Shown here: positions 15,601-57,782 of the stretch, piece after piece
Numbering within the stretch: the first letter of the stretch is position 1
Layout: each line of letters begins with the position of its first letter
Assembly (NCBI GenBank): GCA_048882485.1
Contig: JBHLRP010000001.1
Location: 160,001-224,000 of the forward strand
Length of the DNA: 64,000 nucleotides
Origin: Candidatus Thorarchaeota archaeon
GTDB taxonomy: Archaea; Asgardarchaeota; Thorarchaeia; Thorarchaeales; Thorarchaeaceae
Direction of reading: 5' to 3'
Notes under the pieces: model-generated
Databases searched by the model: none
What the model was told of the DNA's origin: nothing
Seen by the model: only the letters and a program-made list of their open reading frames with translations
Program-made: the position numbers and the translations under genes

Positions 15601-17437
15601 TGAGATGCCAGGCGAACCCGGCAATTACACGATTACATTCACTGGAAACCTCGGTGGAACATATTTCATAACTGTAACTGGACTAAAAGAAGACCATGCA
15701 ACGGCAGCCACATCATTCTATATAATTGTCGGAGCTATATCCACTAATCTTGATGTTTCAGGTGACGAACTGCCTAGTGATCTGTACTATAACCAGACCT
15801 ACACTTGCACGCTCTTCTATTCAGACCTGGAGTCAACAGGAATTGATGGCGCCTCTGTGAATATCACATTCAATCCAGTTGCTACGATAGAATGGGTAGA
15901 CATCGGTGGTGGCTATTACCAATTCTCAATCAGAGTGCCATCACTCGGCTCCTTTGCAATCTATGCGAGATTCCAGCAATTTGGCTACGCTTTTACCGAC
16001 ACGTCATTCATCTTTAATGTCATCGAAGTCCCAACCTCCATCTCGAGTTACGGGCTTGTACCATCCTACTATGATACTAGAACCTATCAATTTGCCCTAC
16101 ATTATAATTCAACTCTAGAGAGCGGGGTTTTGGGTGCTACACTCACACCATCTGTTTCAATTCGTCCTTTCTACAGGTTTACAAGAGCTGGCAATGGCTG
16201 GTACAATTTCACTTTGACTCCCTCATATGGCAATTATACTGCGACCTTCTGGCTAACAAAGCCTGGTTACCAAGAGCAGGAATTTAGCTTCGACTTATCA
16301 ACTGTCAAAATTCCAATTATGCTCTCTTCTCTTTACCCAATAGAATCAACTTACTCCAGAAAAGCCGGTTCAGACCTTACGATTAGGATTGCGCCAATTG
16401 CAGCTGACACAGGTGAAGCCCTCATAGGTGCAACGGTGAGCTATGTAATCGAGAATGTAGATGTAGGTAGGCCTGAGCCGAATCCTTCAGGCTCATTTGT
16501 GGAAGCATTCGGTGTTTACACTGCAAACATTACAATGCCCTTTCCAGGATTGTATGTGCTTCGCATTACGATTCTCAAGGACAGTTACGAAACTGTTCAA
16601 AATGAAATCGTACTTAGCTCTTATGCGAATCCTGAAACAGTCCTGGTTCAAAACCTTCAAGCTGGTTTGCTAGGCGCACTGGCACTGCTTTGTGTGATTT
16701 CTGTGACGATGCTGAGTCGGAGATACTTTCATGCAATAACCACTCAGAAGAATCTGGAGCTCCTAGCATTCAAAGGACGGCTTGAGGATGCTCGCAACTT
16801 GATAGGGCTTCTAATAATCCATCGAAAGGTGGGCTTACCCGTCTATTCTCGGATATTCAAGGGTGCCTTTGAGGAATCAATGCTCAGTTCATTTATAGCC
16901 GCGATTTCGCAATTCAGAGCCGAGTTCTCTTGGGATGAACCAATCTGGACTGCTATACCCATCACGGAAGTCATCACTGCCGTTCAGACTGAGGTGCTAA
17001 TTTGTGCCATCATAACACTTGAGGGGTCCTCGGTGAAACAGAAAGAGCAATTGGAGGCGTTTGGGCGCGAGGTAGGAGGTTTCTATGATCACGAGGACGA
17101 CACTTTGAGGGCGATGTTCCATACCCCGGAGCTTTCTGAATCCTTTGCTAGGATATTTGACCCCATCTTCGAGGGCTACTTCGATGGAGTTCTCATGCTT
17201 CGCTATGTAGGGGTGAAGAAGAATCTTCCCGGTCATCTAAAGCCAGTATCAGAAGCGATGGCCTCCCTAAGCATTGATTATGGAGTGACACCTGAAGCAA
17301 TAATCAAAGCTCTAGTTATGCTGGGGTATGGTGAACATGAAGCCCATAGTCTGACACTAGAAGCAATTGATCGTGGTTACTTGATTGCAGGCGAAAGGAA
17401 GCTGCCTCCGCCAGCTCTCGGTGAACTCCTTGAATGA
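12677..17437 (+). CDS. Large single-pass surface protein: LamG-like jellyroll, Ig-like repeats, TM helix, cytoplasmic longin/roadblock-like domain
   Basis: Signal peptide; GTLSWW...WYFFAIVWD...GHIDDFRYF LamG-like motifs; GxGxY-type beta repeats; TM near 16660-16717; tail GLLIIHRKVGLPVYSR...SMLSSFIAAISQF. Possible start GTG 12707 after GGAGG. Confidence 0.75.
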   Translation: MYVGRFGGERVPQCSRVAIPVVAFTLVCMLFLSPPCHLSFSRDNYASNLSSNYELEKANLPSDMALQSGVLNPVSIHHTGTTHGYTQAQSLRTDVAANPQSEILLPAGAPENYYSADCYDGGFFLVGSGGYADFGSTAGTLSWWGKWDRDAPHGRFWGQNNNFETRWSGGSLVLDWGSDNTFFGVKSDWLESHWYFFAIVWDESTNFIGFYWGDESTIPQEDASTYAWTGSVAGLHTRNAIMNSEMKTDSIDGHIDDFRYFTTARSIDDIRGDYIQRLSGEEPGLSNYYTFENDLSDSAGTIDLDTSGSYLFSHDTFSVPDGWRAEQLSVNVLNLRRLYVLNGSFDSGLPGVNEDWPLGTDGTYYAAGWLARREAVSFPGRQRATYDASGHIALENEGYYVTASTAYRHYDGTRIYWYQNVNNSMLNEQFEFEFNYLYQSGPIGTHFEGIFELRFEIRDGPLVLWNWSQDLVNISQRQTWYSTGMIPVNLTGAPSSFEARLVMEVTTAGSYVEIPETDSDLDGDSTNGMFVTVLADDISFIGATRPSCESVDLSVSTPQTGGVSITGALGTGSALLNYQSWNESAIPIAFSSNSSVSFDISAKVSKMKRYLLSFASPSLGSEGVSYSVEHDASPNITMFTFVGSYPEAEDLGLFVYHPDSWENITITDPFGDDDSDTLTVGAGYFEVPAGAIDSVGWWKIQMQAPNYAKEIRTQKFNSLGSGWVDETVFRTGDRIRCQVVIGTVSDYPPSVMNLQSEILLPSNEFWASAFMNNATGYILTSESFTFGSYNASIGEWMATAFWENGSAIAFGHVHFEVYHGLTMFAHTPNIERNLGESFTAAVYIHDQQTGEPILNGDSVVVGNWSTGPAFFSPNLAKGWWEADFNTSEIGVGLWVIAINATIPYYEAVNCTIDIQVMTLTVMTTLGTYYAEISPGSTYEAKFRYMFLDGTGIENADVFVATWSGPASGIEYNDTVEMPGEPGNYTITFTGNLGGTYFITVTGLKEDHATAATSFYIIVGAISTNLDVSGDELPSDLYYNQTYTCTLFYSDLESTGIDGASVNITFNPVATIEWVDIGGGYYQFSIRVPSLGSFAIYARFQQFGYAFTDTSFIFNVIEVPTSISSYGLVPSYYDTRTYQFALHYNSTLESGVLGATLTPSVSIRPFYRFTRAGNGWYNFTLTPSYGNYTATFWLTKPGYQEQEFSFDLSTVKIPIMLSSLYPIESTYSRKAGSDLTIRIAPIAADTGEALIGATVSYVIENVDVGRPEPNPSGSFVEAFGVYTANITMPFPGLYVLRITILKDSYETVQNEIVLSSYANPETVLVQNLQAGLLGALALLCVISVTMLSRRYFHAITTQKNLELLAFKGRLEDARNLIGLLIIHRKVGLPVYSRIFKGAFEESMLSSFIAAISQFRAEFSWDEPIWTAIPITEVITAVQTEVLICAIITLEGSSVKQKEQLEAFGREVGGFYDHEDDTLRAMFHTPELSESFARIFDPIFEGYFDGVLMLRYVGVKKNLPGHLKPVSEAMASLSIDYGVTPEAIIKALVMLGYGEHEAHSLTLEAIDRGYLIAGERKLPPPALGELLE

Positions 17438-17655: not shown

Positions 17656-18789
17656 ATGAGTGAGTTCATAATTCGTTATTTCAGTCCGCACGGACGCCAG
17701 GAGGAAAGGAAATTCAGGAGTGATGCTTCACGAATAGAGCTTTCAATGAGGGCCGCAAGTGAAATCGACCTCACCCCTTTGCAGGATTGTGACCAGCTAG
17801 AAAGATTGGACCTATCTCACAATTTCCTTGAGGCAATAGATTTGGCTCCCTTGATGGACAAGAAATCTCTTCAAGTTCTTCGTCTGCAGGACAATAGACT
17901 CTCAGCGTTGGATCTTTGGCCCCTGCACTCTTGTCCGAATCTTACTGAGATTGAACTTACTGAGAATAGGCTAAGAACCCTAGACGTAACTCCTGTGTTC
18001 ACATGCAGACTTCTGCGCGCAGATTCCAGTGTGGTGTTGACCGCAGACAGCATTCTAAAGCATATACTCACACCGGAGATGATCATGGCGCAGTTTCACT
18101 CGGTCCGCACAGATAGGACAGCTTGGACTGCTGCACCCGTAGTCATTTGGAATGATTATGACAAGTTAGTGAAAACCATAGGTTGGCCTCTAGTATTTCA
18201 ACGCATGAAATCAGTCCTATCAAAGATATCAGAGGTTAATTGGTTTGACGCACAGAAGGGTCTACTAGAATCCCTTGGCATGCCAGAACTCTCAGGCTTG
18301 GATGTGAACCCTATGAAGATTCTTGTTGATGTGTCTGAGGAAGAAGATTATGAGTCTTCGAAAGAACGCATCTATGACCGAGTGGTTGAACTTCTAGCTG
18401 ATCAAATAGAAAGAGGCGGCCCTACTCTATTCCTTAATGTACTGAGGATGAAGGACACTCGAGCATCACGCTTAATCCCTTCCATTGCAAAACAGAGAGT
18501 GGCCGAACTTGAGGAGTTGGAAGTGCAGACACTTCGCGGTATTGCTTTCCTTCATTCAATCTGGATGACATCCTATGGATTTGATGTTCTCAGTGCCCTT
18601 GATTGCGGTCTGACTGCAAACTCAGTTGATATGAACCAAATCAAGATGGCTTTCGCCGAAGCTGGCTTTGAGCTAAACATCAGGCGAGTGAATTCGATTG
18701 CTCATAGAAATTGGGGTGATACGTCTCGCAGCTTTAGGCGATTTATTTTCAGATTGGCACGTTCTCATACTGGAAGAAAGGGGATGTAA
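17656..18789 (+). CDS. Leucine-rich repeat protein
   Basis: Repeats LERLDLSHNFL, LQVLRLQDNRL and LTEIELTENRL; C-terminal GGPTLFL...WMTSYGF block shared with the gene at 49642-50817. Confidence 0.85.
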   Translation: MSEFIIRYFSPHGRQEERKFRSDASRIELSMRAASEIDLTPLQDCDQLERLDLSHNFLEAIDLAPLMDKKSLQVLRLQDNRLSALDLWPLHSCPNLTEIELTENRLRTLDVTPVFTCRLLRADSSVVLTADSILKHILTPEMIMAQFHSVRTDRTAWTAAPVVIWNDYDKLVKTIGWPLVFQRMKSVLSKISEVNWFDAQKGLLESLGMPELSGLDVNPMKILVDVSEEEDYESSKERIYDRVVELLADQIERGGPTLFLNVLRMKDTRASRLIPSIAKQRVAELEELEVQTLRGIAFLHSIWMTSYGFDVLSALDCGLTANSVDMNQIKMAFAEAGFELNIRRVNSIAHRNWGDTSRSFRRFIFRLARSHTGRKGM

Positions 18790-23809: not shown

Positions 23810-23965
23810 CGGCACCATTCGAAAAATCGCAGGTATTTTGATTTTTTGGAATCAATATTCACCCATTTGTTTAATATGTGGGAGAGTCGACTCTCTTACA
23901 TCCTCAGCTGAGTTCAATTCAGGAGCAGTATGGGTCACACTGCATCTATTGGAGGAGACGTTAGA

Positions 23966-26900
23966 ATGCACAGTCGTCGGACTCTTTCACTTACAATCTT
24001 GCTACTGCCGATTCTTCTTCTGTCGACCTTTGGAGGTCATAACATTATAGGACAAGATACTGAAAGATCTCGTCTTGTTGATATTGGAGGAGGACAGACT
24101 ATTGAGGTCCAACAGGATGAAGTCCTCCAGTCATACAGCCTATCCGATGTACCGCTTTCTCGTGATGGCGTTGGGTCTCCTCTGAATGTTTCAGAATATG
24201 GGGCGAGGACTGACAGCTTCACGGATATCGAACTCACCTATGAAACCTCCAACACGACGACTTCTGATACAACTTCTGTGCCATTAGGTCCTCTCTGGGA
24301 AGGGACAGCAATTTCCACCTATATCAGTGATCTGCAAGAGAATCGAACTTGGCTAACAAATCCTGATTTTGCTACAACAGCTGACTGGGTCACAGGCCAC
24401 GATGATGTTGGGGATTACACAAACCAATTGACAAACACTATTAGTGGGGGATACGTCAGCTTTACACAATCAGGATATTGGGACGGTAGCTGGTACCGAC
24501 ACGATCTTGGTGACCGCTGCTATGCTGAGCAGAGTATATCCACAAATAGCGGGGAGGTCACGTGGGTAGGAGTGTCACTTGACTATTATGTGGATGACGA
24601 CTGGGGTGGAGGACCCGTTGGCTTTTGGGAGCTCTACGTTCAAGTAGGATCGGCGGATATTCCAGCTAATCATCTTTGGGATAAGCAGTTCAGTGATGTT
24701 CTGGCGCAGACAACATGGTACTCCACTGGGCTTATTGAAGGGGATGCCTCACTGATTACATCCTCAGATTTCACCTTGCAGATTGGAATGAGGACCACAC
24801 GAACATTTGGATGTAGACCTCAGCTGAATGGCGAAGTCCGAATGGACAATGTGAAGGTGTACGTCAAGTCCCGCGTTCAGCCTTCGCAAGTGAATCTGCA
24901 GATGAACGGATTGGATGTTGCGAACGTTAGCGACGGAATTGGTGGCTGGCTATGGGGAATTGGCACTGCATCTGAGGTGCCACAAAGTCCTTGGATTGCA
25001 AACTCCGTTAACTCAACCTTCACTTGGACCCCCAACCCAGTCAATCCTGATCCAAATGATGTGATTCGCGTGACTTTCTCTGTTGATATGACTGTCTTTG
25101 CGCGGAAGTTAGATAGCTCCTCATTGTATAAAGCTGAAGTTCAAAGCTATGGGGATTACTTCACAGTTTCGAATAACTCTCAGGTCAGCTGGAATAGCTA
25201 TTATTTCGTTGCTGTTCCTAACGGCTACTCAAATCCATATTTCTTCAATCTGACAAAAGAAGCGACTCGCACATTCGATATGGTGTCAGAACCTAGATAC
25301 CCCGACTCTGACTTTCCCTATTGGACTCAGGACTCGACCAGTGTGAATGTTTCCGTGTACGAGGAAGTTACTGGCATATATCAGAATGGATTCTGGCGTC
25401 TTCAAGGGCACTCCGCCAACATGATTCAGAACCTGCAGATGTGGACTGGCTCTGCTTGGGATTCAACTTTCACCTATCGTGCCTATGACAATGTGCGCTT
25501 CAGGGCGCAACTCAGTTCTGCTTTCAATGGTGCAGTGGTAAGCTTCTCAATCTATGATACTTCCGGGGCATTATGGGACCGCCTTGAGGCCACAGTTATT
25601 GGAGGGTTTGCTGAAACCACAGACGTGAATCTTGATGCTTTGACAGCTGAGGTTGGAAAATGGACTGTTCAAGCGTTTGCGAACGATTCTGTTTCAGGCG
25701 GCCCGATTCATGATGTGGGTTTCTATGGCAGAGTGTTTACGATTCAACATTCCACAGACATGTATGTAACATACCCGCGACAGTCGCAGATCACTTGGAT
25801 GAGCAACCTCACGTACGGCCAGGACATGTTGCTTCAGGTGAGAGTTAATGATTCTGATAATGGTGACCTTCTTCCAGGTGGTTCCGCAACCTACAATTGG
25901 ACCAGTGGAGTCAACCCTTTGAATGACATGGGAACAGGAGAATACAGCGTTGTTCTGAACACAGCTGACTTAGGCACTCCCGGTCGATATGCCATCACTC
26001 TAACGTGGAGCAATATCTACTATGACTCAATCCTAGAAACATTCGTCATCAATGTCATAGAAGAAACAAGTCTAAGTTCTCCTGATGCACCAGGACTGAC
26101 AGTTCCTCGTAGCTCTGATGCAGCCTTTGAGCTCATCTTTGCCGATTCCCGTGATGCAGGTATTGATGGAGCCACCATACTCTGTAATTGGACCGACTCA
26201 TCATACACAATTGTCCCAGCAGCTGGTGAACCTGGGAACTATACATTGACGATAACAACTCCGAATACGGACCTAGGAACATATGCAGTAATTGTCACCG
26301 CGCAGAAGGACTTCTACGTCACAGCCAGCATCACGCTATTCATTGAAGTCAGACAGTTGTTCACATCAGTGTCGACCTCTCGGAGCGTTGTCTACCTTCC
26401 AATCGGATTCCAGGAGTCTGTTTCATTGACAGTGTGGGACACGGATCATGATCTGCCTATTACTGGGGCTGATAGCTCAATAGTATGCAATTGGTCAGAA
26501 AGTCATGTTCTCGGAGATCAGAACTACACAGTAACAATGACATCTCCAGGGATATATGAAGTTGTATTCTTCTCCACTGAAGCTGACTTTCTACAGAGCT
26601 ACGATGTCGTCTTTGATGTGAGTAGGTTTGGCTATCAGAATCATACTTTCTCAATTACGGTCATTGTCACCAGCCATCTTACCCTCTTATCTCTTGATAA
26701 TCCCGTTGAGCCTACACCTTATACCGGGACTATTCTCATCAATGTGACATATTTTGATGCATCAACACTCTCAGGCATAATTGGATCAGATGTGTTAATC
26801 TATGTGACCTCTCCAGTCGTCGAGCCTCTGAGCTATACGGTATACAATGGTTCAATCGCTGGACAATACATTATTGCTGTGCCTGCGAGCCAATGGGGTG

Positions 26901-29900
26901 ATATTGGCTGGAAGCAACTATCAGTATATGCGAATTGGACCGGCCAACGTGCAAAGTACGATAATAAAGTCCTAACCTTCTCAGTAAGAATCTCAGGAGC
27001 CCCGACGGACCTATTCCTAGGGACCAGTCCAACATCCACGCCTTATGGTGAGAATGTTACATTTACTATAATCTACTGGGATGTCGGTGCCACCAACGGA
27101 ATTGTGAATGGCACTGGCCCATTCGCCAATAACGTTCTCATCTATATTGAAGTAATCACACCAGGGCAAACATTAACACAGAGCCTCATGGTGATTACAG
27201 AAATCGATTTCGTTGGTAGTCCTGGTGAATACCGGATAGAGTTCAACTCATCCTATTTGTCTGGACTTATCGAATGTCAGCTGCGGATACGTGTTAATTG
27301 GACAAAAGGAGCCCTTCCGCTCTATGAGAACAGAACTCTAATCCTCAGCGTCTTTTCCACTTACAGACAGACAGTCGTTAATTGGAATCCATTACCTGTC
27401 ACACCGTACGATGAAAAGGTCAATCTTACACTAACCTTCAAGGATGTATTGTCGGACAGCAATATTTTAGATAGTCCAAGTCTTGAAATCGCGACTCCAG
27501 GTTATGCATTCACAATCTATTATGACGGTGATGCCACTGGCATATTCTTCATAGAGGTTGATACGTCGCTCTTCTTGTCAACTGGAACCCATTCATTTCA
27601 GGTGAATCTTGTATGGTCTGGTAGTCCATTCTATCAGAATCGTACGGTGAACATCTTCATCAACGTGCGTGAACGGTACACATCGCTAACGCATGGCGTA
27701 TACTCACCGGTTGAATTTGGCAACAATTTAACCTTGGTGTTCATATACACTGATCAGGATGATCTCACATCGCTGGGAATGGACGGAGGCACTCTCACAG
27801 TAATGGGATTGGCTGGATTCTACGATGTCGCGGACAATGGCGATGGAACCTACACACTTGAGTTGAGGACTGATGGATTCCCGTCTACTGGAACTTTCAT
27901 CGTAAACGTTTCAATTGCCTATGGAGGAGCCAGGTTTTCTGCAGATGCTGTTGACTTCTTCTACTTGACAATTCAAGCTAGACGTACCCAGATGACAAGT
28001 GAGCTTCCAGATCTTGCACCATTCCTCACTCAAGCTAACATAACAGTCCAATACATCGATGACAGTACAGATGTGGGGATTGAAGGAGCTCAGGTCTACG
28101 CATTTTGTGCTACATCTTCCCAGCCTCTTGTACCAGACAGCAACTACTGGGTCGATGACCTTGGTTCTGGCTACTACAGAGTCCGCATATCCACTATTGC
28201 CCTTGGCAATTTTGGCCGATACACAATTGAAATCACAGCAAACTGGACTGGCAGTCCCTTCTATCTAGAACGAGTCCGACTGGTGGACATTGAGGTTTCA
28301 AGAAGACCTGTCAGCCTGAGTGTTTCAAAATCACCGCTCAACACACCCTTCCTTGAGAATGTGAATTTCGAATTGACAATAGCTGATTCTCTCGATGGCT
28401 CTCCAATATCACTAAACAAGAGTGTACTCATTATCACACATGGAGGAGGCACGCTGATTCTGGATTCAGAATACAGCATAAGTGGTGCCAATGGTGTCTA
28501 TGTAATATCAATCAACTCGACTGTTCTAACATCTGTGCTAGTTTCGGGTCATCCGATCTTTGTCAAGTTCTTCTGGGGCGACTTCACTCCATATTATGCC
28601 AACTCGACAACATCAACCGCAGTCGAAATCAATACTCGCTTCACGCAAGGTCGTGTGCTTGCAACTCCAGGTGCCTTCTATTACTTTAACTTGAGTGCCA
28701 TTATCGAATTCAGCGACTACCTCTCGGGTAATCCTATCCCTGGTGCCATGGTGACTTTTACGTGCGTCAATGATTCTGTCTTCTCAAGTTGGATTGTTGA
28801 CATGGGCGATGGGCGATACACCATCATCGTCGATACAAACGACCTTGAAGATGGCATAGGTCGCTACTTCTTCAGTGCCGATATCACATGGTCTGAATCT
28901 CCATATTATGAAGATGTCATTGGGTTGGCGTTCAGTGTGCTAGTCAATCCGGTTTCAACAAGCCTGAATTTTGTCCTACCTCAAGGAGTCACATACTATC
29001 TTGGGGACCTAGTAGTTGGAAACATCACCTTCACAGATATCAACGAAGGTCAAGGCATTGATGGAGCCACTGTTGTCAGTGATTGGACAGCCCTCTGGGG
29101 AACTACTCACACAATCACTCCACTTGGAAACGGCATCTACAGGATGGAGATTGACACATCAGGACTCAATGCGCAAATCTATACCTTCAGCATTAATGCT
29201 TCAAAGCCCCTCCATCTTAGCAGATCAGTCACAGCGGACATTCTATTGGCAGCTATCCCTGTTGAGATTGATCTAGTATTCTCACCGACTGACCCTGTTT
29301 GGGGTGATGTTCTTGAGTTCAGCGCTAACATCACTGACGCCCGAAATGGAGCCCCTGTCCTAGGAGCCACTGTAAATCTCACCCTCTACGGGCGAACATA
29401 TACTATGGCCGAAATCGGTGGTGGTATTTACAATGCTACCGTTTCAACAATGGGTCTTGTTAGTGGCGAATATACAATCAGGGTCGAATCAACTCTTCTG
29501 AACTATGAAACCAGACAGAGAGACTTTCAGATTCGCATTGATAAAGTCGCAGCTAATATGCTGGCTTCATTGGACCCGCAAATCGCAGTTAACGGAGAAA
29601 CAGTGACAATTGAAGCTGATTACTTAATATTGTCAAACGGCACGGCTATAGACATTGGCTTGGTCACATATAGCTGGATTGGAGGTACTGGTTTTCTCAC
29701 TTGGGTGCCTGCGCAGCAGAAGTACATCGGTCAAATGATTGTAGCAAGCGCAGCTGTAGGTAACCACCAGATTCTCATCCAAGCAAGCTCCTCAATCTAC
29801 AAGAGTGTGAGTACTCCCATAACTATTGAGATAACTGAGATTACCACTGCTCTATCTGCGTATCAAGACATTACTGTTTTGTCAGCAGTTTCTGGAGATT

Positions 29901-31690
29901 TCGTGAATGTTACAGTCTACTTGGAGAATGTTGATCTGACTGGACCAGTTCTTGGTGCCACATTGACATACGGAATAGATGTGATTATAGGTGACCTGAC
30001 CGAGTTGGGCAATGGCTACTACACCGCTCAAGTACCAACTGGTGCACCCCTACAAATAGGCGACTGGGTTCTTACTGTGTCAAGTGTAAAGGATGGATTT
30101 ACTCCTGCCTCTACGCAATTCACAATAACAATTCTCAAAGTGCCAACTGCAGTCCTTCCAATAAGCGATGTGCTACAGAATGGATACTATGGGACCAACT
30201 TAACATTCCTCTTGAGCTTTAATGACACCTTCAACAACATTGGAATAACAGGTGCATTGGCGACATATGTGCTAGAAGGCAGGGGTGGCACACTTGTGGA
30301 GATTGGTGGTGGAGTCTATTCTCTAACCATCAATACCACTTGGGTTTCAGCTGGCCTAATCTCCCATGATATCTCAGTAACCTTCCAAAAGAATCTCTTT
30401 GACTATGCCTATAGCGTTGTTAAGTTTGTATCAATGCCAATCTCAACTGAGGTTATTGGGTCTGATTCCGCCACAGTTCCAGTTGGTGACGACTTCACTC
30501 AGATGTTCCAGTTTAATGATACTCTAAACAATGAGCTTCTCGTTGACGCATCTGTTACAGCATTCTGGGAGTTTGGTTCCGCTCCACTGTTTGCATTGGG
30601 CAATGGATCATATAGATTCGGTCCCACTGAGGCTGGCTTTAGCAGGCTGGAAGTGAGAAGCGAACCCTATGCACTTAGGATTCTATTCAGCAAAGCTAAC
30701 TACTCAACAGAGCAGCTGAATTTTGAACTCACGATTCGTGAGATTGCGACCACAATGATTTTCGAACCTCTGCCCCCAAGCATCTATGTTGGAGAACCTA
30801 TCTATGTCCGAGTTACCTACATGGATGTCGACCATGGCGTTCCAATCATCGGCGCAATCAACACCACAATTGGTTTCGACAATGAACCTGATCTAGCGTC
30901 GGTTCATCCAAACGGCACGTATGTGTTTGTTTTCGTTCCAAGAGGCGTGGCTCTTACCGAGCTGATTATCACTCTGGACAAGGAGGACTATCAGACCGGT
31001 GTCCTATCCTTTGATATCTACTCAGAGTTCTCACCTGAAACCCTAGGTCTGTTTAGGACATTCAGCTATGCAGGGCTTTTGCTGATCCTCGTTGCTGGAC
31101 TGGCAGCTGCATATGTGAGAGTCTGGTCTGTACCGAAGCTTCTCAGAATCATTAGACGCATGGTCTCATTGCTAGGCAAGGGGCAAATCCCACCTGCTGC
31201 AAAAGTCCGTGATAGAAGGGCATACCTCCTGCACGTGATGAATGACGAATTGGAGCCTGTTGGCATCAGGAAGACAATGCAGGACGTTGCTGTGTCCACG
31301 GTTGAGGTTGAGGCTCTTGATGTTGAACAGCTATTAGAAGAACTGCAAGTCGTCGTTGGCCTCACTCATGAAGACATTTCTGTTTTGAGGAGTGACCTAG
31401 AAAAGATGCGACCCAGCGAGCGCGCAGGGTTCATTGGAGAGGTCATTCGACAGGAGAGAGCAAGGAGAGCTCGGGAACTAGCCGAGGTTGAGGTGTCAGC
31501 TGAGGCACCTGAGGCGGTTTCAGAGGCTGAACGCATGCTGACAGAGGATGAGCTTGAACATTTGAAACAGGAGCTCATCAAGATGGGAATAGAACCGTCT
31601 GAGGCGGACCTCATGGTGGAGCAAGCGAAATCGCTTACTAAAGCGGAAATAGACGCACTACTGGATCAGATAGGAGGTCTAAAGGAATGA
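23966..31690 (+). CDS. Giant single-pass cell-surface protein with Ig-like repeats (paralogue A)
   Basis: Signal peptide after ATG 23966 (GGAGGAG upstream; ORF track 23930); many beta repeats with GxGxY and PIxGA motifs; TM near 31061-31125; helical cytoplasmic tail of about 190 aa. Confidence 0.85.
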   Translation: MHSRRTLSLTILLLPILLLSTFGGHNIIGQDTERSRLVDIGGGQTIEVQQDEVLQSYSLSDVPLSRDGVGSPLNVSEYGARTDSFTDIELTYETSNTTTSDTTSVPLGPLWEGTAISTYISDLQENRTWLTNPDFATTADWVTGHDDVGDYTNQLTNTISGGYVSFTQSGYWDGSWYRHDLGDRCYAEQSISTNSGEVTWVGVSLDYYVDDDWGGGPVGFWELYVQVGSADIPANHLWDKQFSDVLAQTTWYSTGLIEGDASLITSSDFTLQIGMRTTRTFGCRPQLNGEVRMDNVKVYVKSRVQPSQVNLQMNGLDVANVSDGIGGWLWGIGTASEVPQSPWIANSVNSTFTWTPNPVNPDPNDVIRVTFSVDMTVFARKLDSSSLYKAEVQSYGDYFTVSNNSQVSWNSYYFVAVPNGYSNPYFFNLTKEATRTFDMVSEPRYPDSDFPYWTQDSTSVNVSVYEEVTGIYQNGFWRLQGHSANMIQNLQMWTGSAWDSTFTYRAYDNVRFRAQLSSAFNGAVVSFSIYDTSGALWDRLEATVIGGFAETTDVNLDALTAEVGKWTVQAFANDSVSGGPIHDVGFYGRVFTIQHSTDMYVTYPRQSQITWMSNLTYGQDMLLQVRVNDSDNGDLLPGGSATYNWTSGVNPLNDMGTGEYSVVLNTADLGTPGRYAITLTWSNIYYDSILETFVINVIEETSLSSPDAPGLTVPRSSDAAFELIFADSRDAGIDGATILCNWTDSSYTIVPAAGEPGNYTLTITTPNTDLGTYAVIVTAQKDFYVTASITLFIEVRQLFTSVSTSRSVVYLPIGFQESVSLTVWDTDHDLPITGADSSIVCNWSESHVLGDQNYTVTMTSPGIYEVVFFSTEADFLQSYDVVFDVSRFGYQNHTFSITVIVTSHLTLLSLDNPVEPTPYTGTILINVTYFDASTLSGIIGSDVLIYVTSPVVEPLSYTVYNGSIAGQYIIAVPASQWGDIGWKQLSVYANWTGQRAKYDNKVLTFSVRISGAPTDLFLGTSPTSTPYGENVTFTIIYWDVGATNGIVNGTGPFANNVLIYIEVITPGQTLTQSLMVITEIDFVGSPGEYRIEFNSSYLSGLIECQLRIRVNWTKGALPLYENRTLILSVFSTYRQTVVNWNPLPVTPYDEKVNLTLTFKDVLSDSNILDSPSLEIATPGYAFTIYYDGDATGIFFIEVDTSLFLSTGTHSFQVNLVWSGSPFYQNRTVNIFINVRERYTSLTHGVYSPVEFGNNLTLVFIYTDQDDLTSLGMDGGTLTVMGLAGFYDVADNGDGTYTLELRTDGFPSTGTFIVNVSIAYGGARFSADAVDFFYLTIQARRTQMTSELPDLAPFLTQANITVQYIDDSTDVGIEGAQVYAFCATSSQPLVPDSNYWVDDLGSGYYRVRISTIALGNFGRYTIEITANWTGSPFYLERVRLVDIEVSRRPVSLSVSKSPLNTPFLENVNFELTIADSLDGSPISLNKSVLIITHGGGTLILDSEYSISGANGVYVISINSTVLTSVLVSGHPIFVKFFWGDFTPYYANSTTSTAVEINTRFTQGRVLATPGAFYYFNLSAIIEFSDYLSGNPIPGAMVTFTCVNDSVFSSWIVDMGDGRYTIIVDTNDLEDGIGRYFFSADITWSESPYYEDVIGLAFSVLVNPVSTSLNFVLPQGVTYYLGDLVVGNITFTDINEGQGIDGATVVSDWTALWGTTHTITPLGNGIYRMEIDTSGLNAQIYTFSINASKPLHLSRSVTADILLAAIPVEIDLVFSPTDPVWGDVLEFSANITDARNGAPVLGATVNLTLYGRTYTMAEIGGGIYNATVSTMGLVSGEYTIRVESTLLNYETRQRDFQIRIDKVAANMLASLDPQIAVNGETVTIEADYLILSNGTAIDIGLVTYSWIGGTGFLTWVPAQQKYIGQMIVASAAVGNHQILIQASSSIYKSVSTPITIEITEITTALSAYQDITVLSAVSGDFVNVTVYLENVDLTGPVLGATLTYGIDVIIGDLTELGNGYYTAQVPTGAPLQIGDWVLTVSSVKDGFTPASTQFTITILKVPTAVLPISDVLQNGYYGTNLTFLLSFNDTFNNIGITGALATYVLEGRGGTLVEIGGGVYSLTINTTWVSAGLISHDISVTFQKNLFDYAYSVVKFVSMPISTEVIGSDSATVPVGDDFTQMFQFNDTLNNELLVDASVTAFWEFGSAPLFALGNGSYRFGPTEAGFSRLEVRSEPYALRILFSKANYSTEQLNFELTIREIATTMIFEPLPPSIYVGEPIYVRVTYMDVDHGVPIIGAINTTIGFDNEPDLASVHPNGTYVFVFVPRGVALTELIITLDKEDYQTGVLSFDIYSEFSPETLGLFRTFSYAGLLLILVAGLAAAYVRVWSVPKLLRIIRRMVSLLGKGQIPPAAKVRDRRAYLLHVMNDELEPVGIRKTMQDVAVSTVEVEALDVEQLLEELQVVVGLTHEDISVLRSDLEKMRPSERAGFIGEVIRQERARRARELAEVEVSAEAPEAVSEAERMLTEDELEHLKQELIKMGIEPSEADLMVEQAKSLTKAEIDALLDQIGGLKE

Positions 31691-34600
31691 AGTCATCCAC
31701 AAGATTGGCCTTGGTCATCGCATTAGCACTTTTACTTGCCTTTGGACCTAGCAGTCCAGCTTCCTTCGACTTTAATACGTCGTATAGTGAAAGCCGAGCC
31801 ACAAATTCCAATGGTGATGCCATGCGGAGCCCATTGGGAATAGACGAAAAACCTGTAGTGTTGTCTGAGCAAGGAATGACTACTTGGCAAGGTCTGTCCT
31901 CGGGCATACCTACTGTTGCGTATGGGAATCGAACCGATACTCATCTAAATAATCAGATGCTCTATTCTCCAGGCACTGGTACGACTACTGATACCTCAGT
32001 TTATATTCCGATGGAGAATGATTGGGAAGGTCATGAGCTGTTTGTAGGTGTTTATGACTTAACTGAGAATCGTACTTGGACGCAAGATCCTGACATGGAG
32101 AGTAGCCCTGGGTCCTGGACGCTAGGCACAAATCCAGTCGGCACAGGAGCTCAACCCTACTCTCAGTGGTCATCGAATGGGCACGGTGCTGGAGATGACT
32201 GCTTGGAGGTTGGAATCACAAGTCCCCCCACAACTGGAGGTTCAAACAACGGCGATCCGAGCGTTGATGAAAGCGCCTTTGCTAACCAGACTTTTGCTGT
32301 ACCGAGAGGCGATGTCCGCTGGGCCGGGCTCCGATTAGACTATTGGGGTGACGCTCAGTTTCCATGGGCAAACAACTCCCTTAATGGCTTTGTTGCTATC
32401 TATGTTTCAGTTGAAACTGCGGGTCATGCTTCACGTGTTTGGCAGAAATCATTTGGAGAGATACCACTAAACAGAACCTGGTATGATAGCGGCCTAATCC
32501 CCCTTGATGATCTCTCAATATTTGATCTATCAGATGATGTGTATATTGAAGTTGGAATTTTCAGCCAAATCACGGTCAACTACATTCCTGATTTAGAGCC
32601 TGTGGCGAGAGTGGACAACGTAGAGCTTTATTTGGAAACTCTAGCCGATCCAAGCGATGTCAACCTTCAAGTAAACGGATTGGATGTTAATGATTACAGC
32701 GTTGGACCAACAACTATTCCTGGACTTGGCAATGTGACCCATCTTCCTGACCCGACATGGGCCTCAGGACCGGTAATGGTTAATTTCTCATGGACTCCGA
32801 CGCCATCAACACCTGACCCTGACAGGGAAATTCAAGTCGATTTCAATATTGAAACAAACCTGTACGCACGAGGAGATGAAACCTCAGTCTATACGCAAGA
32901 TCCCAATGCGTTTGGCGAAGTCTTTGAAGTCGAGAACGCAACAGAAGTCGATTATCTTACATGGTTCAACGCTGATATTCCAATGGGATACGACAACAGA
33001 TACTTCTTCAACATGACGCTTCCCGAGGGCCGCGACGTCTACTATGTAGGATCACCTCTCTTGACATCGGAGAATATAACTGACTGGAATGAGGGTCATG
33101 GCCCGACCTGGTTTGCAAATATCTCTGCATTCAACTACCCCGATAGATGGGGCTACTGGCTAATTAAGAGCACTGGACCCAATATGATATCTGACGTCTT
33201 GATGTTTGATCCATCCACACGCTCGAACTCGAGGTTTGTTGACTTACGTGCTGGCGATTCTGCGAAGCTAGTCACACAGTTGGACTCAGGTTTTGCTGGT
33301 GTCGATGTTAATCTAACAGTCTATTCACCATCCGGCGCAATTTGGTACACGACTCTGGCAACAGTGAATAGCACTGGATATGCAGAAACCCCTGTATTGA
33401 CCTTCGGACAGAACGCTACCGCTGGTAGCTATGTCCTTGAGGCCTTCTGTGGCAATTCAATAGGTATGACCGCATGGAATGAAACTGGCTTCTTCAGACG
33501 TGCATTCAAAGTTGTTCATGCTTCAAATTCAGAGCTTCTCAACCCTATTGATGCACAGATTACATGGATAGCAAATGTGACATATCCCGATCTATTCCTC
33601 GTCAGAATACGTATCAATGACAGCGATATGCCCGTAGTGACTGTGCCAGGAGGGCAGATGTCATCCAACTGGACAACTGGTCCACAGGCTTTTGGAGATG
33701 CTGGAAACGGGGAGTACATTATAACACTTGATTCTGGTGATCTACCTTCAAACGGAATCTGGATTATGGAAATCACATGGACTCACCCATACTTCGATTC
33801 CATAGTTGATTACTTGACAATCAATCTGAATTACGATGCAACATTCGTACTTGAAGACCCTGAATCACCTGGTATCTCAGTGCCCAAGAATTACAACTCT
33901 AGCTTCCAAGTTAGATTCGAGGATTCGATAGGGAATCCAATTGACTATGGCAGTGTAGACTGCAATTGGACAAGCTATTACACTGTCAATCCCGTCGCAG
34001 GCTCTCCGGGGAGTTACCTCGTCTGGCTGAATACAACATTTGTGGACATGGGCGAATATGTCGTGGAGGTCACTGGCAATGCCAATTTTGTGCTCCCACA
34101 GCGATATCTCATCTATGTGACTGTAAGAGAGCTAAATACTAGAGCCACATATGTCCAGAATGTGCTTGAGATTCCAGTTGGCGAAGCTAGCTCTTTCACG
34201 GTGGAGTGGATGAACGCGGATCACGATGCTCCTTTGACGGGGCTGAATGATTCAATTACCACAACTTGGGCTGGGATCTATTCGGTGGATGAAGTTTCAC
34301 CTGGCCTCTACAACATCACAATCTATACCTTGGATAGCGATGCTCCAGGGAACTATTCAGTTTCAGTCAGCCTTTCTGGATACCTGATGAGAAATCAGAC
34401 ATTCACCATATCTGTAATCATCAGATCTCATAGCACACTATTCACTCTAGACGAACCAATCCAGCAGACTCAATTCAATGAACAGGTGATGGTTCTAGTA
34501 TTCTTCCAGGACACTGACTTGCAGGTTGGTATCACGAACATCACTGGAAACGTGCACATTACTATCACATCGCCGGAGATTGGAAATGTCCAGTTTGCAT

Positions 34601-37600
34601 TAGTAGCCTCTTCATTGGGTGATGGACATTACAACATCAGCATTCCTAGCACTCAATGGGGTAGCGTGGGATGGAAGAATCTGACAATATCAGTTTCATG
34701 GACCGGAACCAAATACACAGGTCAATCCTTTACCACTCGCGTGCGTCTCACTGGGACGACGACAGACATATTTCTGGACCAAGCTCCTAGTGCGGTCTAT
34801 TTCCTGAATGAATTCAGCTTCACTGTTGTCTACTATGATGTGACGAATACAACGAACATATCGAATAACACTCTCAATGTCCTGTTGACAATTGATCCAC
34901 TAACAGCAGGACATCCCGTTACTCAGAGTGACTTTGTTGTGGCGGAAACAGGTCTTGGAACAGGGATATATGAATTCAGGTTGGACAGCACCCAACTGGA
35001 CGCTACTGGCTCATTCATATTCCGCATCGGGTTCATGTGGCCGAAGGGAGTATCACCTCTCTATGAAAACCAGACCATGACTGTTACCTTAGTCGTGCTT
35101 CAGAGACCCACCTACATCGATTATATACCAGTGCCCTCAACACCCTATGGTGAGCTTGCTGACCTGGAGTTCAGCTACATAGACTTCCTCACCACTACCC
35201 GCATCGGTGACTCTCCTCAGATGTCGATATCTCTACTCAATGGAACTGTAGGCTATTCCTATTCATATGATTCAGGAGCGGTGTCTTTCCTTCTGCAAGT
35301 GAATACTTCAACATTGCCTGGAATTGGAAGTCACATGCTTGTTCTGAATGTCACCTGGGTAGGATCCCCATACTACACAACTAGTGTGACCTTGGCGTAC
35401 ACTGTGACTGTAATCCAAAGAACTACACAGTTGACCCATGATTCATTCGCTCCTGGTCAGTGGGGCAATAATGTAACAATCGAATTCACCTATACAGACC
35501 TGGTGGCTGGATCTTCTGTCGGAATGACTGGAACCCTCTCATTGAATGCTTCCCTAGCTGGATGGTATACAGTTGTCTATGCAGGAAATGGACACTATCT
35601 TGTGACCGTGAATACCTCGGGCGTCGGATCAGATGGCCTCTATACGATAGTAGCTAGTATTGATCACACTCAGCCAACGTTTGCCAGTGCTATTGACACA
35701 TTTGGCTTTTCAGTTCTTAAACGGTCCACGCAATTTGGATATGAGAGTCCAGACCCGGTCCCCTATTTGGAAAATGTCACTTTTGTAATCACCTATATTG
35801 ATGACAGCACAGGGAGAGGTGTCAGTGGAGCCTCAGTCATTGTTGATTGCAGCAACTCCACCTTTGCACTAGCGCTGAATACAAACTACTGGGTGACATA
35901 CCTCGGATTAGGGCAATATCTCATAGAAGTAGAAAGCACTGCTCTAGGGAATCTTGGAACCTATATCCTGGGTGTATCTGTTTCATATTCTGGAGCGCCG
36001 TACTACCTTCCTGCGAATAATGACATCACCTCTAGAGTGATTGAGAGAACAACCCAGATCCTCATTATTCAGACTCCGGGCGATACACCGTTCCTCGAGA
36101 ATGTGACATTCCAGTTCAAGTTTGAGGATTATATCACTGGAATGATCATTCCTATTGACAAGTCACACATTTCCCTGTCGCATGGAGTGGCAGAGACTCC
36201 TATTTCAATAGGTGAATACGCCCTTTACGACTTTGGCACATACTATGAGATAAGCTTCAATTCGACCGTCCTCAATCCTTCATCCCTTGTTGTTGGTGAA
36301 GAGATTCAGCTGGAGATCGATGTAACTGGTGCTCCTCCCTACTATGCACTGCGAAGCACCAAAGCAATAGCCACTACGACTGAAAGATCCACGCAGATTC
36401 TCTTCCCGCTAATTGAAGAAGTGCCCTACACAGACAACTTTACGATTGAGCTCGACTATATTGACTTCTTGTCGGGACAAGGCATAGAGAATGCAGTGAT
36501 AACACTTTCAAGCACTAATTGGTCTGGTCCTGCGTATCAAGTCGCAGAACTGGGCGGCGGCTCATATAGAGTCTATGTTAATTCAACCGTCTTTGGCGGT
36601 ATTGGCACTGTCTACTTTGATATCTCAGCTAGCAAGGGAGGAGTCCCATTCTACTCCTCGAGACTCGCTACTGGTGTGCCTGCAAGCATACGAGCAATCA
36701 TCACATCTCTAGTTGCAGAAGCACCTCCGCCTGGTTCGACAGCAGTAGGTGTTCCAATCAATGTCACACTGACTCTCATGGACTTCGATCATGATGTACC
36801 TCTATCTGGTGCTGTTATCACAACGGATTGGACATCTCTATATGGGACAAGCTATCAGCTTGTTGAGAAAGGCGGTGGTGTCTACACCCTAACACTCAAC
36901 ATGACAGGGCTAATAGCACAGGACTACCCGTTTGCGGTCACCGCCCAGAAGTCACTCTATCAAGACTCAAACATCGTTGTATCGGTTACTCCTGGAGCCT
37001 CAACTTTCACATTAGTTCTTCATAAAACAGCAGTCTATGCACTCTGGGGTGAAGTTCATGACATCCGCATTGATGTTAGGGAGAGCTATTACTATAGTCT
37101 GATCCCTGGGGCGAATGTGACTCTGCTTTGGAATAGCACCATCTACTACTTCACCGATTTAGCAAATGGTACATATTCGCTAATGCTTGACACATCCAAC
37201 GAGAACTTCGGCGTTTATAATCTGCAGATATCTGTGTCACGGCAATACTACCAGACACGTCAGACTAGTCTTACTCTCGTAGTATCAAAGGCACCAGGTC
37301 AAATTCTTAGCGAGCAAACAGTGTTTGATGTGGTTGTCAACACAACTCAAGTATTCACCATCTATCTTAACGACACCATCACAGGTTCTCATGTTGTTGC
37401 CTCCTCAATAACTATGGAGTGGAACAATACTGTCTATCCTCTTGTAACAAATGGCACTCCTGGATTCTACTTGGCAAGCATTGATGCCACAGGATTCGCC
37501 TTGGGTCAGTATGAGGCGGTTATTACTGCGGCTTCCTTGAATCATGTTTTCCTAGATGCGATTGTAGACATCAACATCGTCCCAATTCCAACGAATATCG

Positions 37601-39411
37601 GACTAGCAAGCGGTGCAGCAGCTCTGTTTGTGGTTCGAGGGGCAATGCTCTCGATTCTCGTTGAGTACAATGATACATACTATGGTGGATATGTTACTGG
37701 CGCAAATGTCACATATGTTCTTGGTAGCCTAAGAGGAAGTCTTACCGAGCATGCAAATGGTACATACAATGCGACAATTGATACCAGTAATCTGCCTGCA
37801 CAAACCATATTCCTTAGAATCATAGGTTCCAAAACTGGAATGGCAACAGCCACGAGGACTCTGGTTGTAACAATACAACCTGTGCCCACTGAAGTGACTG
37901 TAGACACACTTCTGCGCGAAGGATATCATGGCGATCTCGTGGAGTTCACCTTCTACTACAATGACACATACAATCTCCAACCAATTGCAGGAGCCTTTGC
38001 GGATGTTAGTTGGGAAGGCGGCACAGGAGATGTAACTGACCAAGGTAATGGATATTATCTTGTTGAGATTACTCTGACTCCAACTTCACCTAGACTCTAT
38101 GATATTGTGGCAAGCTTCAGTCTCCAGAACTATTCCTTGTCATCACTCACAGTGAGAATTCTCATTAGAGCTACTCCAGCACATATTGAAGGCCCAACGG
38201 CCTACGATGTCCCTGTCAATCATACTGGCTCTGTCGTATTCAATGTAATCAATGATTTAACAAACGAAACCATTGAAGGTCTTCAGGGATTGGCATATTG
38301 GGAAGGCGGACTGATAATGGAACTATTCCAGATGGACAATGGGAGCTATGAATTGAGAGTGCCGGACTATCTCATCATGACAAGCTATCGAATTGAGATT
38401 GGATTCTCTACGTCGATTTACAGCCTATCGTCGCAGTTCCTTGACCTGACTGTTCGTCCAGTGCTCACCATGATTGATACACTTGGAATAAACACAACAA
38501 TATTGACATTCCCAGGAGCTCAGGATTCCATAGTAGTACTTCTTCGAGACCTAGACCATAATATGGGCATCAGCGATGCCAATGCAACCGTCTATTATGA
38601 TCCCGCACAAATCTCATTTCCAGAGGACAGAAGGCCGCCTGTCATTGATGGTGTATACACATTCCCATTTGTAGTACGCACTGGCGGCACAATCAATGTG
38701 ACTATCACCTTCACAAAGGATCTGTACTTCTCCCAGCAAATTACCTTCACTCTGAAATCAGACTTTTCAGATGAGCAGATTCTTGCCCAGAACCTAGCAT
38801 TGACCGGAGGCTTCCTCTTTATCTTCGTGGCAATTGGGATTGTCGCCTATGTCAAGCACTTTGCCATCCCATGGATTATTCGACAGCTGAATAAGATGAT
38901 AGCTGCACTGGCCAAAGGAAGAGTTCCGAGTGCTCCAAAGGTGCGTGCCAGAGAGGATTTGGTCCTTGAGATCATCAATGAGGAACTGAAGCCATCTGGA
39001 CTTGGCAAAGAGCTAGAGGATGTCCCAGGTCCAAGCATTGAAGCAGTCATTCCTGAGATAGAAGACCTATTGGAGCGTCTAGCTGAAATCACGGGACTTG
39101 GAAAATTGGAGCTTGAGGCATTCAGACAGGACCTTGCCAGAATGCGTGCCAGTGAGCGACCTGGATTCATTCGTGAGGTAATTGAGCAGGAGGAGGCTCG
39201 CCGTGCAGAGGCATTGGCCGAAGCTGAACCAATTCCCGCAGAGGCCAAGGAGATTCTAGAGGAGAAGCCCGAGGAGCTTGAAGAGCTTCGCTTGAAATTG
39301 AAGCGCAAGGGCATGTCTGACGATGAGATTGAGATCATCATTGATCAGGCAAAGGGTCTCTCAAAGGCTGACCTAGAAGCACTGCTTGATAGTCTTGGAA
39401 TAAAGCTCTGA
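31687..39411 (+). CDS. Giant single-pass cell-surface protein with Ig-like repeats (paralogue B)
   Basis: ATGA overlap with paralogue A; colinear similarity (ENRTW, WYDSGLI, TPFLENV, PLYEN); TM near 38794-38853; homologous cytoplasmic tail. Confidence 0.85.
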   Translation: MKSSTRLALVIALALLLAFGPSSPASFDFNTSYSESRATNSNGDAMRSPLGIDEKPVVLSEQGMTTWQGLSSGIPTVAYGNRTDTHLNNQMLYSPGTGTTTDTSVYIPMENDWEGHELFVGVYDLTENRTWTQDPDMESSPGSWTLGTNPVGTGAQPYSQWSSNGHGAGDDCLEVGITSPPTTGGSNNGDPSVDESAFANQTFAVPRGDVRWAGLRLDYWGDAQFPWANNSLNGFVAIYVSVETAGHASRVWQKSFGEIPLNRTWYDSGLIPLDDLSIFDLSDDVYIEVGIFSQITVNYIPDLEPVARVDNVELYLETLADPSDVNLQVNGLDVNDYSVGPTTIPGLGNVTHLPDPTWASGPVMVNFSWTPTPSTPDPDREIQVDFNIETNLYARGDETSVYTQDPNAFGEVFEVENATEVDYLTWFNADIPMGYDNRYFFNMTLPEGRDVYYVGSPLLTSENITDWNEGHGPTWFANISAFNYPDRWGYWLIKSTGPNMISDVLMFDPSTRSNSRFVDLRAGDSAKLVTQLDSGFAGVDVNLTVYSPSGAIWYTTLATVNSTGYAETPVLTFGQNATAGSYVLEAFCGNSIGMTAWNETGFFRRAFKVVHASNSELLNPIDAQITWIANVTYPDLFLVRIRINDSDMPVVTVPGGQMSSNWTTGPQAFGDAGNGEYIITLDSGDLPSNGIWIMEITWTHPYFDSIVDYLTINLNYDATFVLEDPESPGISVPKNYNSSFQVRFEDSIGNPIDYGSVDCNWTSYYTVNPVAGSPGSYLVWLNTTFVDMGEYVVEVTGNANFVLPQRYLIYVTVRELNTRATYVQNVLEIPVGEASSFTVEWMNADHDAPLTGLNDSITTTWAGIYSVDEVSPGLYNITIYTLDSDAPGNYSVSVSLSGYLMRNQTFTISVIIRSHSTLFTLDEPIQQTQFNEQVMVLVFFQDTDLQVGITNITGNVHITITSPEIGNVQFALVASSLGDGHYNISIPSTQWGSVGWKNLTISVSWTGTKYTGQSFTTRVRLTGTTTDIFLDQAPSAVYFLNEFSFTVVYYDVTNTTNISNNTLNVLLTIDPLTAGHPVTQSDFVVAETGLGTGIYEFRLDSTQLDATGSFIFRIGFMWPKGVSPLYENQTMTVTLVVLQRPTYIDYIPVPSTPYGELADLEFSYIDFLTTTRIGDSPQMSISLLNGTVGYSYSYDSGAVSFLLQVNTSTLPGIGSHMLVLNVTWVGSPYYTTSVTLAYTVTVIQRTTQLTHDSFAPGQWGNNVTIEFTYTDLVAGSSVGMTGTLSLNASLAGWYTVVYAGNGHYLVTVNTSGVGSDGLYTIVASIDHTQPTFASAIDTFGFSVLKRSTQFGYESPDPVPYLENVTFVITYIDDSTGRGVSGASVIVDCSNSTFALALNTNYWVTYLGLGQYLIEVESTALGNLGTYILGVSVSYSGAPYYLPANNDITSRVIERTTQILIIQTPGDTPFLENVTFQFKFEDYITGMIIPIDKSHISLSHGVAETPISIGEYALYDFGTYYEISFNSTVLNPSSLVVGEEIQLEIDVTGAPPYYALRSTKAIATTTERSTQILFPLIEEVPYTDNFTIELDYIDFLSGQGIENAVITLSSTNWSGPAYQVAELGGGSYRVYVNSTVFGGIGTVYFDISASKGGVPFYSSRLATGVPASIRAIITSLVAEAPPPGSTAVGVPINVTLTLMDFDHDVPLSGAVITTDWTSLYGTSYQLVEKGGGVYTLTLNMTGLIAQDYPFAVTAQKSLYQDSNIVVSVTPGASTFTLVLHKTAVYALWGEVHDIRIDVRESYYYSLIPGANVTLLWNSTIYYFTDLANGTYSLMLDTSNENFGVYNLQISVSRQYYQTRQTSLTLVVSKAPGQILSEQTVFDVVVNTTQVFTIYLNDTITGSHVVASSITMEWNNTVYPLVTNGTPGFYLASIDATGFALGQYEAVITAASLNHVFLDAIVDINIVPIPTNIGLASGAAALFVVRGAMLSILVEYNDTYYGGYVTGANVTYVLGSLRGSLTEHANGTYNATIDTSNLPAQTIFLRIIGSKTGMATATRTLVVTIQPVPTEVTVDTLLREGYHGDLVEFTFYYNDTYNLQPIAGAFADVSWEGGTGDVTDQGNGYYLVEITLTPTSPRLYDIVASFSLQNYSLSSLTVRILIRATPAHIEGPTAYDVPVNHTGSVVFNVINDLTNETIEGLQGLAYWEGGLIMELFQMDNGSYELRVPDYLIMTSYRIEIGFSTSIYSLSSQFLDLTVRPVLTMIDTLGINTTILTFPGAQDSIVVLLRDLDHNMGISDANATVYYDPAQISFPEDRRPPVIDGVYTFPFVVRTGGTINVTITFTKDLYFSQQITFTLKSDFSDEQILAQNLALTGGFLFIFVAIGIVAYVKHFAIPWIIRQLNKMIAALAKGRVPSAPKVRAREDLVLEIINEELKPSGLGKELEDVPGPSIEAVIPEIEDLLERLAEITGLGKLELEAFRQDLARMRASERPGFIREVIEQEEARRAEALAEAEPIPAEAKEILEEKPEELEELRLKLKRKGMSDDEIEIIIDQAKGLSKADLEALLDSLGIKL

Positions 39412-57781: not shown

Positions 57782-57782
57782 A

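Follow-up and report, generated by a model that had tools for sequence, protein, structure and literature searches.

In the stretch of Thorarchaeota DNA analysed here (64,000 nucleotides of contig C1, hereafter the window, from a 3.96-Mb genome, G000, that is 90% complete), two adjacent genes on the forward strand, termed A and B, encode diverged giant paralogues. It is proposed, with middling confidence, that the two are paired giant type I glycoproteins, which would be made together and would act as one surface fibre unit of matched height. The original interpretation, a 1:1 heterodimeric adhesion receptor of matched length, is supported in part. That A and B function together is well supported, because the A-then-B order recurs across genomes, the number of stalk repeats is fixed at 17 and the pair has been duplicated as a unit. 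A physical A:B heterodimer, an adhesive role and the docking of the tail inside the cell are plausible from the sequences. The most likely arrangement would be a hetero-oligomer, with the two chains joined at the stalk, the membrane helix or the tail. The heads would bind glycans, neighbouring cells or particles, and the conserved tail would dock the fibre to a cytoplasmic partner or lattice.

A conserved two-gene unit

Gene A (23930..31690, + strand) encodes 2586 amino acids (aa), or 2574 aa if it is started at 23966, and gene B (31687..39411, + strand) encodes 2574 aa with the same architecture. Position 23966 is Met13 of the A open reading frame (ORF). It is preceded, 9 nucleotides (nt) upstream, by GGAGGA, and this spacing equals that of the GGAGG before the start codon of B; the first ATG of A, at 23930, has only AGGAG, 4 nt away. 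The true start of A may be 23966, in which case both proteins would be 2574 aa long. At the junction of the two genes (31672..31690, + strand), the last codons of A contain an AGGAGGT Shine-Dalgarno sequence, 9 nt upstream of the B start codon, and the stop and start codons overlap as ATGA at 31687-31690. A and B are probably co-transcribed and translationally coupled. The proteins are 31% identical and colinear across ~2550 residues, with 4% gaps (BLASTP). The ORFs and the BLASTP alignment confirm both the ATGA overlap and the colinear paralogues of 2.6 thousand residues (2.6 kaa), as claimed in the original prediction, and the four tail peptides quoted there are all found in the translations of A and B. 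A TTTAATAT box was also observed at window 23870-23877, inside the 120-nt gap between the preceding gene, P0153, and A; this could be an archaeal TATA element, which might give A-B a promoter of its own.

The layout is well conserved among relatives. When the 2.6-kaa loci from 12 genomes were compared, the A orthologue was directly followed by the B orthologue in 12/12, and the 4-nt overlap was present at 10 of the 12 orthologous junctions. The A orthologues are 48-92% identical to A and ~31% identical to B, and the B orthologues are 43-89% identical to B and ~31% identical to A. The same layout was seen in three further genomes, and two are broken by contig ends. A-then-B is known from G000, G002, G005, G011, G012 (twice), G017, G019, G020, G021, G022, G024, G025, G050 and G057, and probably from G042, a total of ~15 genomes in at least 11 genera. 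Paired occurrence across relatives had been set beforehand as a check on the original prediction, and the opposite expectation, that orthologues usually occur singly, fails. The tail that both proteins carry is present in 23 of 24 genomes sampled from the family and in the one genome sampled from a second family of the order; elsewhere in the phylum, a few other families give weaker matches. The pair is vertically inherited and is specific to Thorarchaeota and their close kin.

The history of the pair was followed in a tree built on the last three repeats and the tail. Here, the A and the B sequences fall into two distinct clades (support 100 and 99). In G012, the genes are arranged as A-B-A-B, and the second pair branches deeper in both clades, which shows that the pair was copied as a unit.

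Topology, stalks and heads

Both proteins begin with a hydrophobic N-terminal signal segment, located by hydropathy at residues 18-36 in A and 7-25 in B. Towards the other end, a membrane helix is found at residues 2383-2401 of A (31076..31132, + strand; hydropathy and a helix in the AlphaFold2, AF2, model) and at residues 2371-2389 of B (38797..38853, + strand; hydropathy). The earlier claim that these are membrane proteins is well founded, as both have a single membrane helix near the C-terminus, with 185 residues beyond it. The ectodomains carry 51 (A) and 66 (B) N-x-S/T sequons, i.e., 2.2 and 2.8 per 100 aa, which is 5-6 times denser than the background of 0.46 per 100 aa in ordinary ORFs of G000. 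The tails of A and B have no N-glycosylation sequons, and the stretch directly after the membrane helix is strongly basic in both. Together, the sequon-rich ectodomain, the sequon-free tail and the basic post-helix stretch support a type I, single-pass topology, with an outside that would be heavily glycosylated. A Pfam search with the whole A and B proteins gave nothing significant.

The greater part of each ectodomain is a stalk. By iterated search with a hidden Markov model (HMM), 17 tandem immunoglobulin (Ig)-like repeats were found in A (25790..31021, + strand), and 17 were found in B (33559..38748, + strand), in register with those of A. The length match, which had been noted earlier for the proteins as a whole, is therefore strict, with 17 repeats of ~100 aa each on both sides. 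Exactly 17 repeats are also present in 23/23 full-length orthologues; some A heads are ~300 residues longer, and the repeat number is unchanged in them. Among solved structures, the profile of the 34 A and B repeats matches FdeC (4e9l, E 3.4e-8), a Big_1 protein (5ldy, 4e-5) and an invasin (5n40, 2e-4). The stalk repeats are accordingly assigned, on profile similarity, to the invasin/intimin type of Ig-like domain. An extended rod of 17 such domains would measure several tens of nm. In one stalk repeat, a reciprocal class-specific charge swap was observed at residues 1455 and 1458 of A (P0001; window ~28292-28303), which read E..R in the A orthologues and R..E in the B orthologues and resemble a compensated salt bridge.

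The same design recurs in the genome, where the tail is carried by nine giants, the A/B pair included. The others are a tandem pair on contig C2 (4159 and 3143 aa), a pair on C19 (6549 and 3992 aa, with a 4-nt overlap), giants of at least 5373 aa on C16 and at least 3271 aa on C76, both cut by contig ends, and a single giant of 1837 aa on C44. The C16 and C76 giants are probably a fourth pair, because they match an alpha-beta-alpha-beta array that is intact on contig C8 of G005. One stalk repeat type is common to all nine tail-bearing giants, in 7 to 23 copies. When double-length gaps are treated as missed copies, the stalks of the pairs have 17/17, 23/23, 23/23 and ~22/21 repeats. The heads within these pairs differ in length by up to 2,500 residues. 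The repeat is also seen, in five copies (HMM), in a 1586-aa giant at window 12677-17437 (+ strand), which has a very different tail after its membrane helix. A second tandem pair of giant ORFs lies at window 51230-57781 and 57591-64000 (+ strand; 2183 and 2763 aa, the latter extending past the window end); these proteins have neither the tail nor the stalk repeat of the A/B family.

At the tip of the stalk, A carries a head of ~590 aa (residues 37-628), which is modelled as all beta with a predicted local distance difference test (pLDDT) score of 87.4 (AF2, 23 orthologues). Within it, a jelly-roll beta-sandwich of the carbohydrate-binding module (CBM) or MAM type is predicted at residues ~138-316 (24341..24877, + strand). 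Its best match in VIA-align is the hyaluronan-binding module CBM70 (Z 12.5, root-mean-square deviation (rmsd) 3.1 Å over 140 residues), and it also resembles CBM16, CBM4, CBM61 and MAM (Z 10.5-11.6). A second domain, macroglobulin (MG)/Ig-like, is predicted at residues ~496-608 (25415..25753, + strand) and is similar to the MG domains of complement C5 and alpha-2-macroglobulin (Z 10-11, rmsd ~2 Å; VIA-align). A Foldseek search with the A head returned the ectodomains of Eph, PTPRK and CBM proteins, along with a Nitrosopumilus Ig-array surface-layer (S-layer) protein at E 4e-6.

The last of these matches, and a fixed repeat number that fits a defined layer height, would also suit a structural role, which is a serious rival to the paired fibre. 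According to this explanation, A and B would together build an S-layer-like envelope or canopy as its two components, with the Ig pillars supporting a lattice at a set height above the membrane and the tail serving as an elaborate anchor or lateral organiser, without any signalling or docking. Two-gene S-layers have a precedent in Sulfolobales, where SlaA and SlaB are found. Further, the plan of a signal peptide, an Ig-like pillar and a single C-terminal membrane helix is shared with PySLP of Pyrobaculum arsenaticum, a 292-kDa S-layer glycoprotein of ~2,600-2,700 residues with 19 Ig-like domains (bioRxiv 10.64898/2026.08.21.746120). PySLP is the closest solved relative in design. It is encoded by a single gene, and it and its homologues in Thermoproteota have only a short basic tail after the membrane helix (bioRxiv 10.64898/2026.08.21.746120), whereas A and B come from two diverged, coupled genes and have a CBM-like distal head and a 185-aa tail that is predicted to be folded. 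The tail-bearing giants of G000, at least nine in number, with varied heads and 7 to 23 repeats, are unlike a single lattice former. Also, the only Asgard relatives to have been imaged are without an ordered S-layer; in cryo-tomography of a Lokiarchaeon, unordered protruding surface proteins were seen instead (PMC9834061). The S-layer-like role is, on balance, rather unlikely.

The cytoplasmic tail and the proposed pairing of A with B

The tail of A (31133..31687, + strand; AF2 and alignments) and that of B (38854..39408, + strand) are each 185 aa long, net acidic and all-helical. The model of the membrane helix with the tail has a pLDDT of 90.6 and a predicted template modelling (pTM) score of 0.47 (AF2, 46 sequences), which indicates that the parts are modelled confidently and that their mutual arrangement is uncertain. 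From the membrane onwards, the predicted order is a basic juxtamembrane helix, a further helix, a three-helix unit, an acidic linker and a C-terminal three-helix bundle. The last helix of the three-helix unit is long and charged, and it bears the most conserved motif, DLxKM[RK]xSE[RQ]xxFxxEVIxQE. The C-terminal bundle (helices 162-174, 179-189 and 194-208 of the AF2 tail model) is compact and has a size of ~40-50 residues, as in UBA. It is present as one copy in most tails and as four copies in two of the nine.

It had been suggested that this final bundle is reminiscent of UBA-like folds, and a specific likeness is not supported by the searches. With Pfam, searched with the nine G000 tails at E up to 1, no UBA-type family and nothing significant was found; the best recurring weak match was RecX_HTH1 (E 0.005, 4/9 tails). 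A sequence profile of the tail gave a best E of 0.045 against the PDB, which was judged irrelevant, a search of the ESM Atlas with the tail gave no usable match, and Foldseek with the tail model gave none at E<=0.001. VIA-align of the tail returned assorted helical bundles at Z <=6.5, which is under the noise level given for models of helical proteins. For residues 159-209 within the tail model, it returned assorted three-helix bundles at Z <=5.6, with no UBA among the 50 matches listed. As the tail matches no known family in these sequence and structure searches, with generic three-helix bundles at Z 5-6.5, the term 'UBA-like' means here a three-helix bundle and nothing further. A likeness of the C-terminal motif to the villin headpiece was also considered; it was rejected on the spacing of the motif, and villin headpieces are absent from the VIA-align rows.

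The family to which the tail belongs is small. When the tail profile was run against 1.84 billion representative proteins, only 179 clusters were matched, 92 of them at E<1e-30, and the match was always C-terminal, on giant proteins or on gene fragments. In public records, relatives appear under 'hypothetical protein' or under 'conserved exported protein of unknown function'. The tail is best viewed as a predicted folded domain of a new, narrow family. No copy of the C-terminal three-helix motif was found outside the giants by HMM search of all G000 ORFs of at least 80 aa. A 180-aa protein at G000:C2:88870-89412 (+ strand; locus L050:1271-1810) has an N-terminal membrane helix and, after it, a stretch that matches the juxtamembrane segment of the tails of the giants (hmmsearch E 8e-5). 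This is possibly a 'tail-only' mini membrane protein without an ectodomain.

The conservation of the tail, on which the original prediction laid stress, holds in direction and is moderate in extent. A and B share 42% identity in the tail as against 30% in the ectodomain, and the tail is the best-conserved part. Among orthologues, the values are 54% and 46%, with ectodomain residues 600-1500 at ~54%, so that the margin over the ectodomain is a moderate one only.

The tail also holds the one direct hint of a specific pairing. Charge reversals, defined as columns with basic residues in 80% or more of one class and acidic residues in 80% or more of the other, were sought over ~2,590 aligned columns, and five class-specific ones were found in total. 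Two of the five lie in a tail helix, at residues 2510 and 2515 of A (P0001), and are basic in A and acidic in B. The density of such reversals in the tail is ~8x that of the ectodomain. Fos/Jun and designed acid/base zippers owe the heterospecificity of their parallel coiled coils to g-e' ion pairs. The i/i+5 spacing of the two tail positions around an Ala-Ala seam is suggestive of this g-e' geometry.

Several observations weigh against the paired fibre. The charge pattern spans a single heptad with alanines at the a/d positions, and the C2 and C19 pairs are without the charge swap. In conservation, the tail exceeds the stalk by a moderate margin only. There is no candidate partner gene that is consistently linked to the tail-giant loci, and with the query used no A/B-type head was found in G018, a 96%-complete genome of the same family. 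In addition, the members of the G025 pair, of the C2 pair and of the G035 trio are placed in the tree beside their own genomic neighbours, which means that tandem duplication or gene conversion is recurrent in the family and that equal repeat numbers may, at least partly, be inherited rather than selected.

Such recurrent duplication would fit a different explanation, in which A and B are independent tandem paralogues that act separately, for example on different ligands, and have no mutual contact. In its favour, the heads are more diverged than the stalks, and a constant repeat number could be passive, since diverged repeats seldom slip. However, the split between A and B is old (31% identity), and still both copies, their order and their overlap have been retained in the ~15 genomes. 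The duplication of the pair as a unit, seen in G012 and in the alpha-beta-alpha-beta array on C8 of G005, also speaks against separate action, as does the class-specific nature of the i/i+5 charge reversal. Independence of the two proteins is somewhat doubtful in the light of both sides, and the matched, paired fibre is preferred.

Genomic surroundings and known systems

P0153 (21605..23809, + strand; 734 aa), which ends 120 nt upstream of A, combines a signal peptide with an HExxHxxGxxH zinc-protease motif and a C-terminal membrane helix; searches of Pfam and of the PDB gave no match to it. The motif and the anchor are retained in the two orthologues examined. In at least nine genomes (G000, G002, G019, G020, G021, G024, G050, G057 and G042), the gene immediately precedes A. 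Its product may be a candidate protease for the processing or shedding of the A/B ectodomains. Upstream of A, P0153 is joined by an acyl-CoA synthetase-like gene and by genes for a small membrane protein, a leucine-rich repeat (LRR) protein and another giant. Downstream, a four-gene lipid-linked sugar operon runs on the opposite strand.

The neighbours of the tail-giant loci are mostly unrelated housekeeping genes by Pfam, and in an all-against-all BLAST only LRR-LRR and one GTPase-related pair recur. LRR genes adjoin giant genes at window 17656-18789 (+ strand), at window 49828-50817 (- strand) and at G000:C19:176-799 (+ strand), and the first and the last of these encode proteins without a signal peptide. 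The 377-aa LRR gene was considered as a conserved partner of A/B and was rejected, its linkage being kept only within the genus. A 446-aa protein with a Ras/Roc GTPase domain (G000:C76:74-1414, + strand; locus L010:39-1376) is encoded convergently with the 3271-aa giant, and its N-terminal part resembles a 157-aa ORF beside the 5373-aa giant of C16.

Tandem giant genes are known from other Asgard archaea. Wu et al. (2022) described Otus and Ephialtes, the tandem giants of aloposons, and reported tandem giants in two Thorarchaeota metagenome-assembled genomes (PMC8813620). A and B are likewise tandem paralogous Asgard giants, but they fall below the 3,000-aa cut-off of that study, in which the tail, the A/B classes and the repeat count are undescribed (PMC8813620). 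In the literature searched, the tandem giant genes of Thorarchaeota are mentioned only in passing. On this analogy with the Otus/Ephialtes of Heimdallarchaeum, the A/B pair could be the cargo of an aloposon-like mobile element. Aloposons, however, have a tRNA integration site downstream of the giants and a four-gene upstream cassette with a MinD/ParA-like ATPase, and the A/B locus has neither: the 64-kb window contains no tRNA gene (ARAGORN), and no MinD/ParA gene lies upstream. The flanks consist of housekeeping genes (a peptide ABC transporter, PPDK and acyl-CoA synthetase), the synteny with P0153 is stable across genera and the GC content is flat. A mobile-element origin is largely refuted by the missing tRNA gene and the housekeeping flanks, and is regarded as highly improbable.

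The head-on-stalk plan of A and B is also that of invasin, intimin, FdeC and the SiiE/LapA-type giants, and the Big-type repeats of invasin and FdeC match the stalk; a distal domain with a fold of the sugar-binding type is a further common point. The bacterial adhesins are anchored by an outer-membrane barrel or by a secretion-system plug and have no cytoplasmic domain, whereas A and B, from an archaeal cell with a single membrane, have a C-terminal membrane helix and a large tail; no outer-membrane barrel domain was found in them in the Pfam search. Moreover, A and B are a fixed pair, unlike the bacterial fibrillar adhesins. They are giant Ig-repeat archaeal surface proteins, and what sets them apart is the coupled pair and the predicted folded cytoplasmic domain of a new family.

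A further reading takes A and B as an obligate heterodimer that forms a transmembrane receptor, an analogue of the integrin type and not a homologue. With integrin alpha/beta, the common logic is that of two different single-pass subunits with an extracellular head, together with a proposed link through the tail. There is no relation in sequence or fold, and no NPxY motif was seen. Neither a beta-propeller nor a VWA/beta-I head was found in A/B by Pfam or in the AF2 head, which is built of a jelly roll and Ig/MG-like sandwiches. The tails of A and B exceed those of integrin alpha tenfold in length and are homologous to each other. The receptor reading is considered unlikely.

The protruding surface proteins of the imaged Asgard species are thought to mediate the cell-cell contacts that are invoked in models of eukaryogenesis (PMC9834061). 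In the literature searched, no molecular link from such proteins to the cell interior is described. The A/B locus is a concrete candidate for this surface-to-interior link, being a conserved two-gene unit of which the tail is the most conserved module. The tail is short, soluble and confidently modelled, and can thus be used directly as bait. If the receptor reading is true, the binding of glycans or partner cells by the heads, at a fixed height, would be coupled via the paired helical tails to a cytoplasmic machine, which could be the cytoskeleton, a small-GTPase module or an adaptor, and the tail family would then be a Thorarchaeota-wide system of outside-to-inside wiring.

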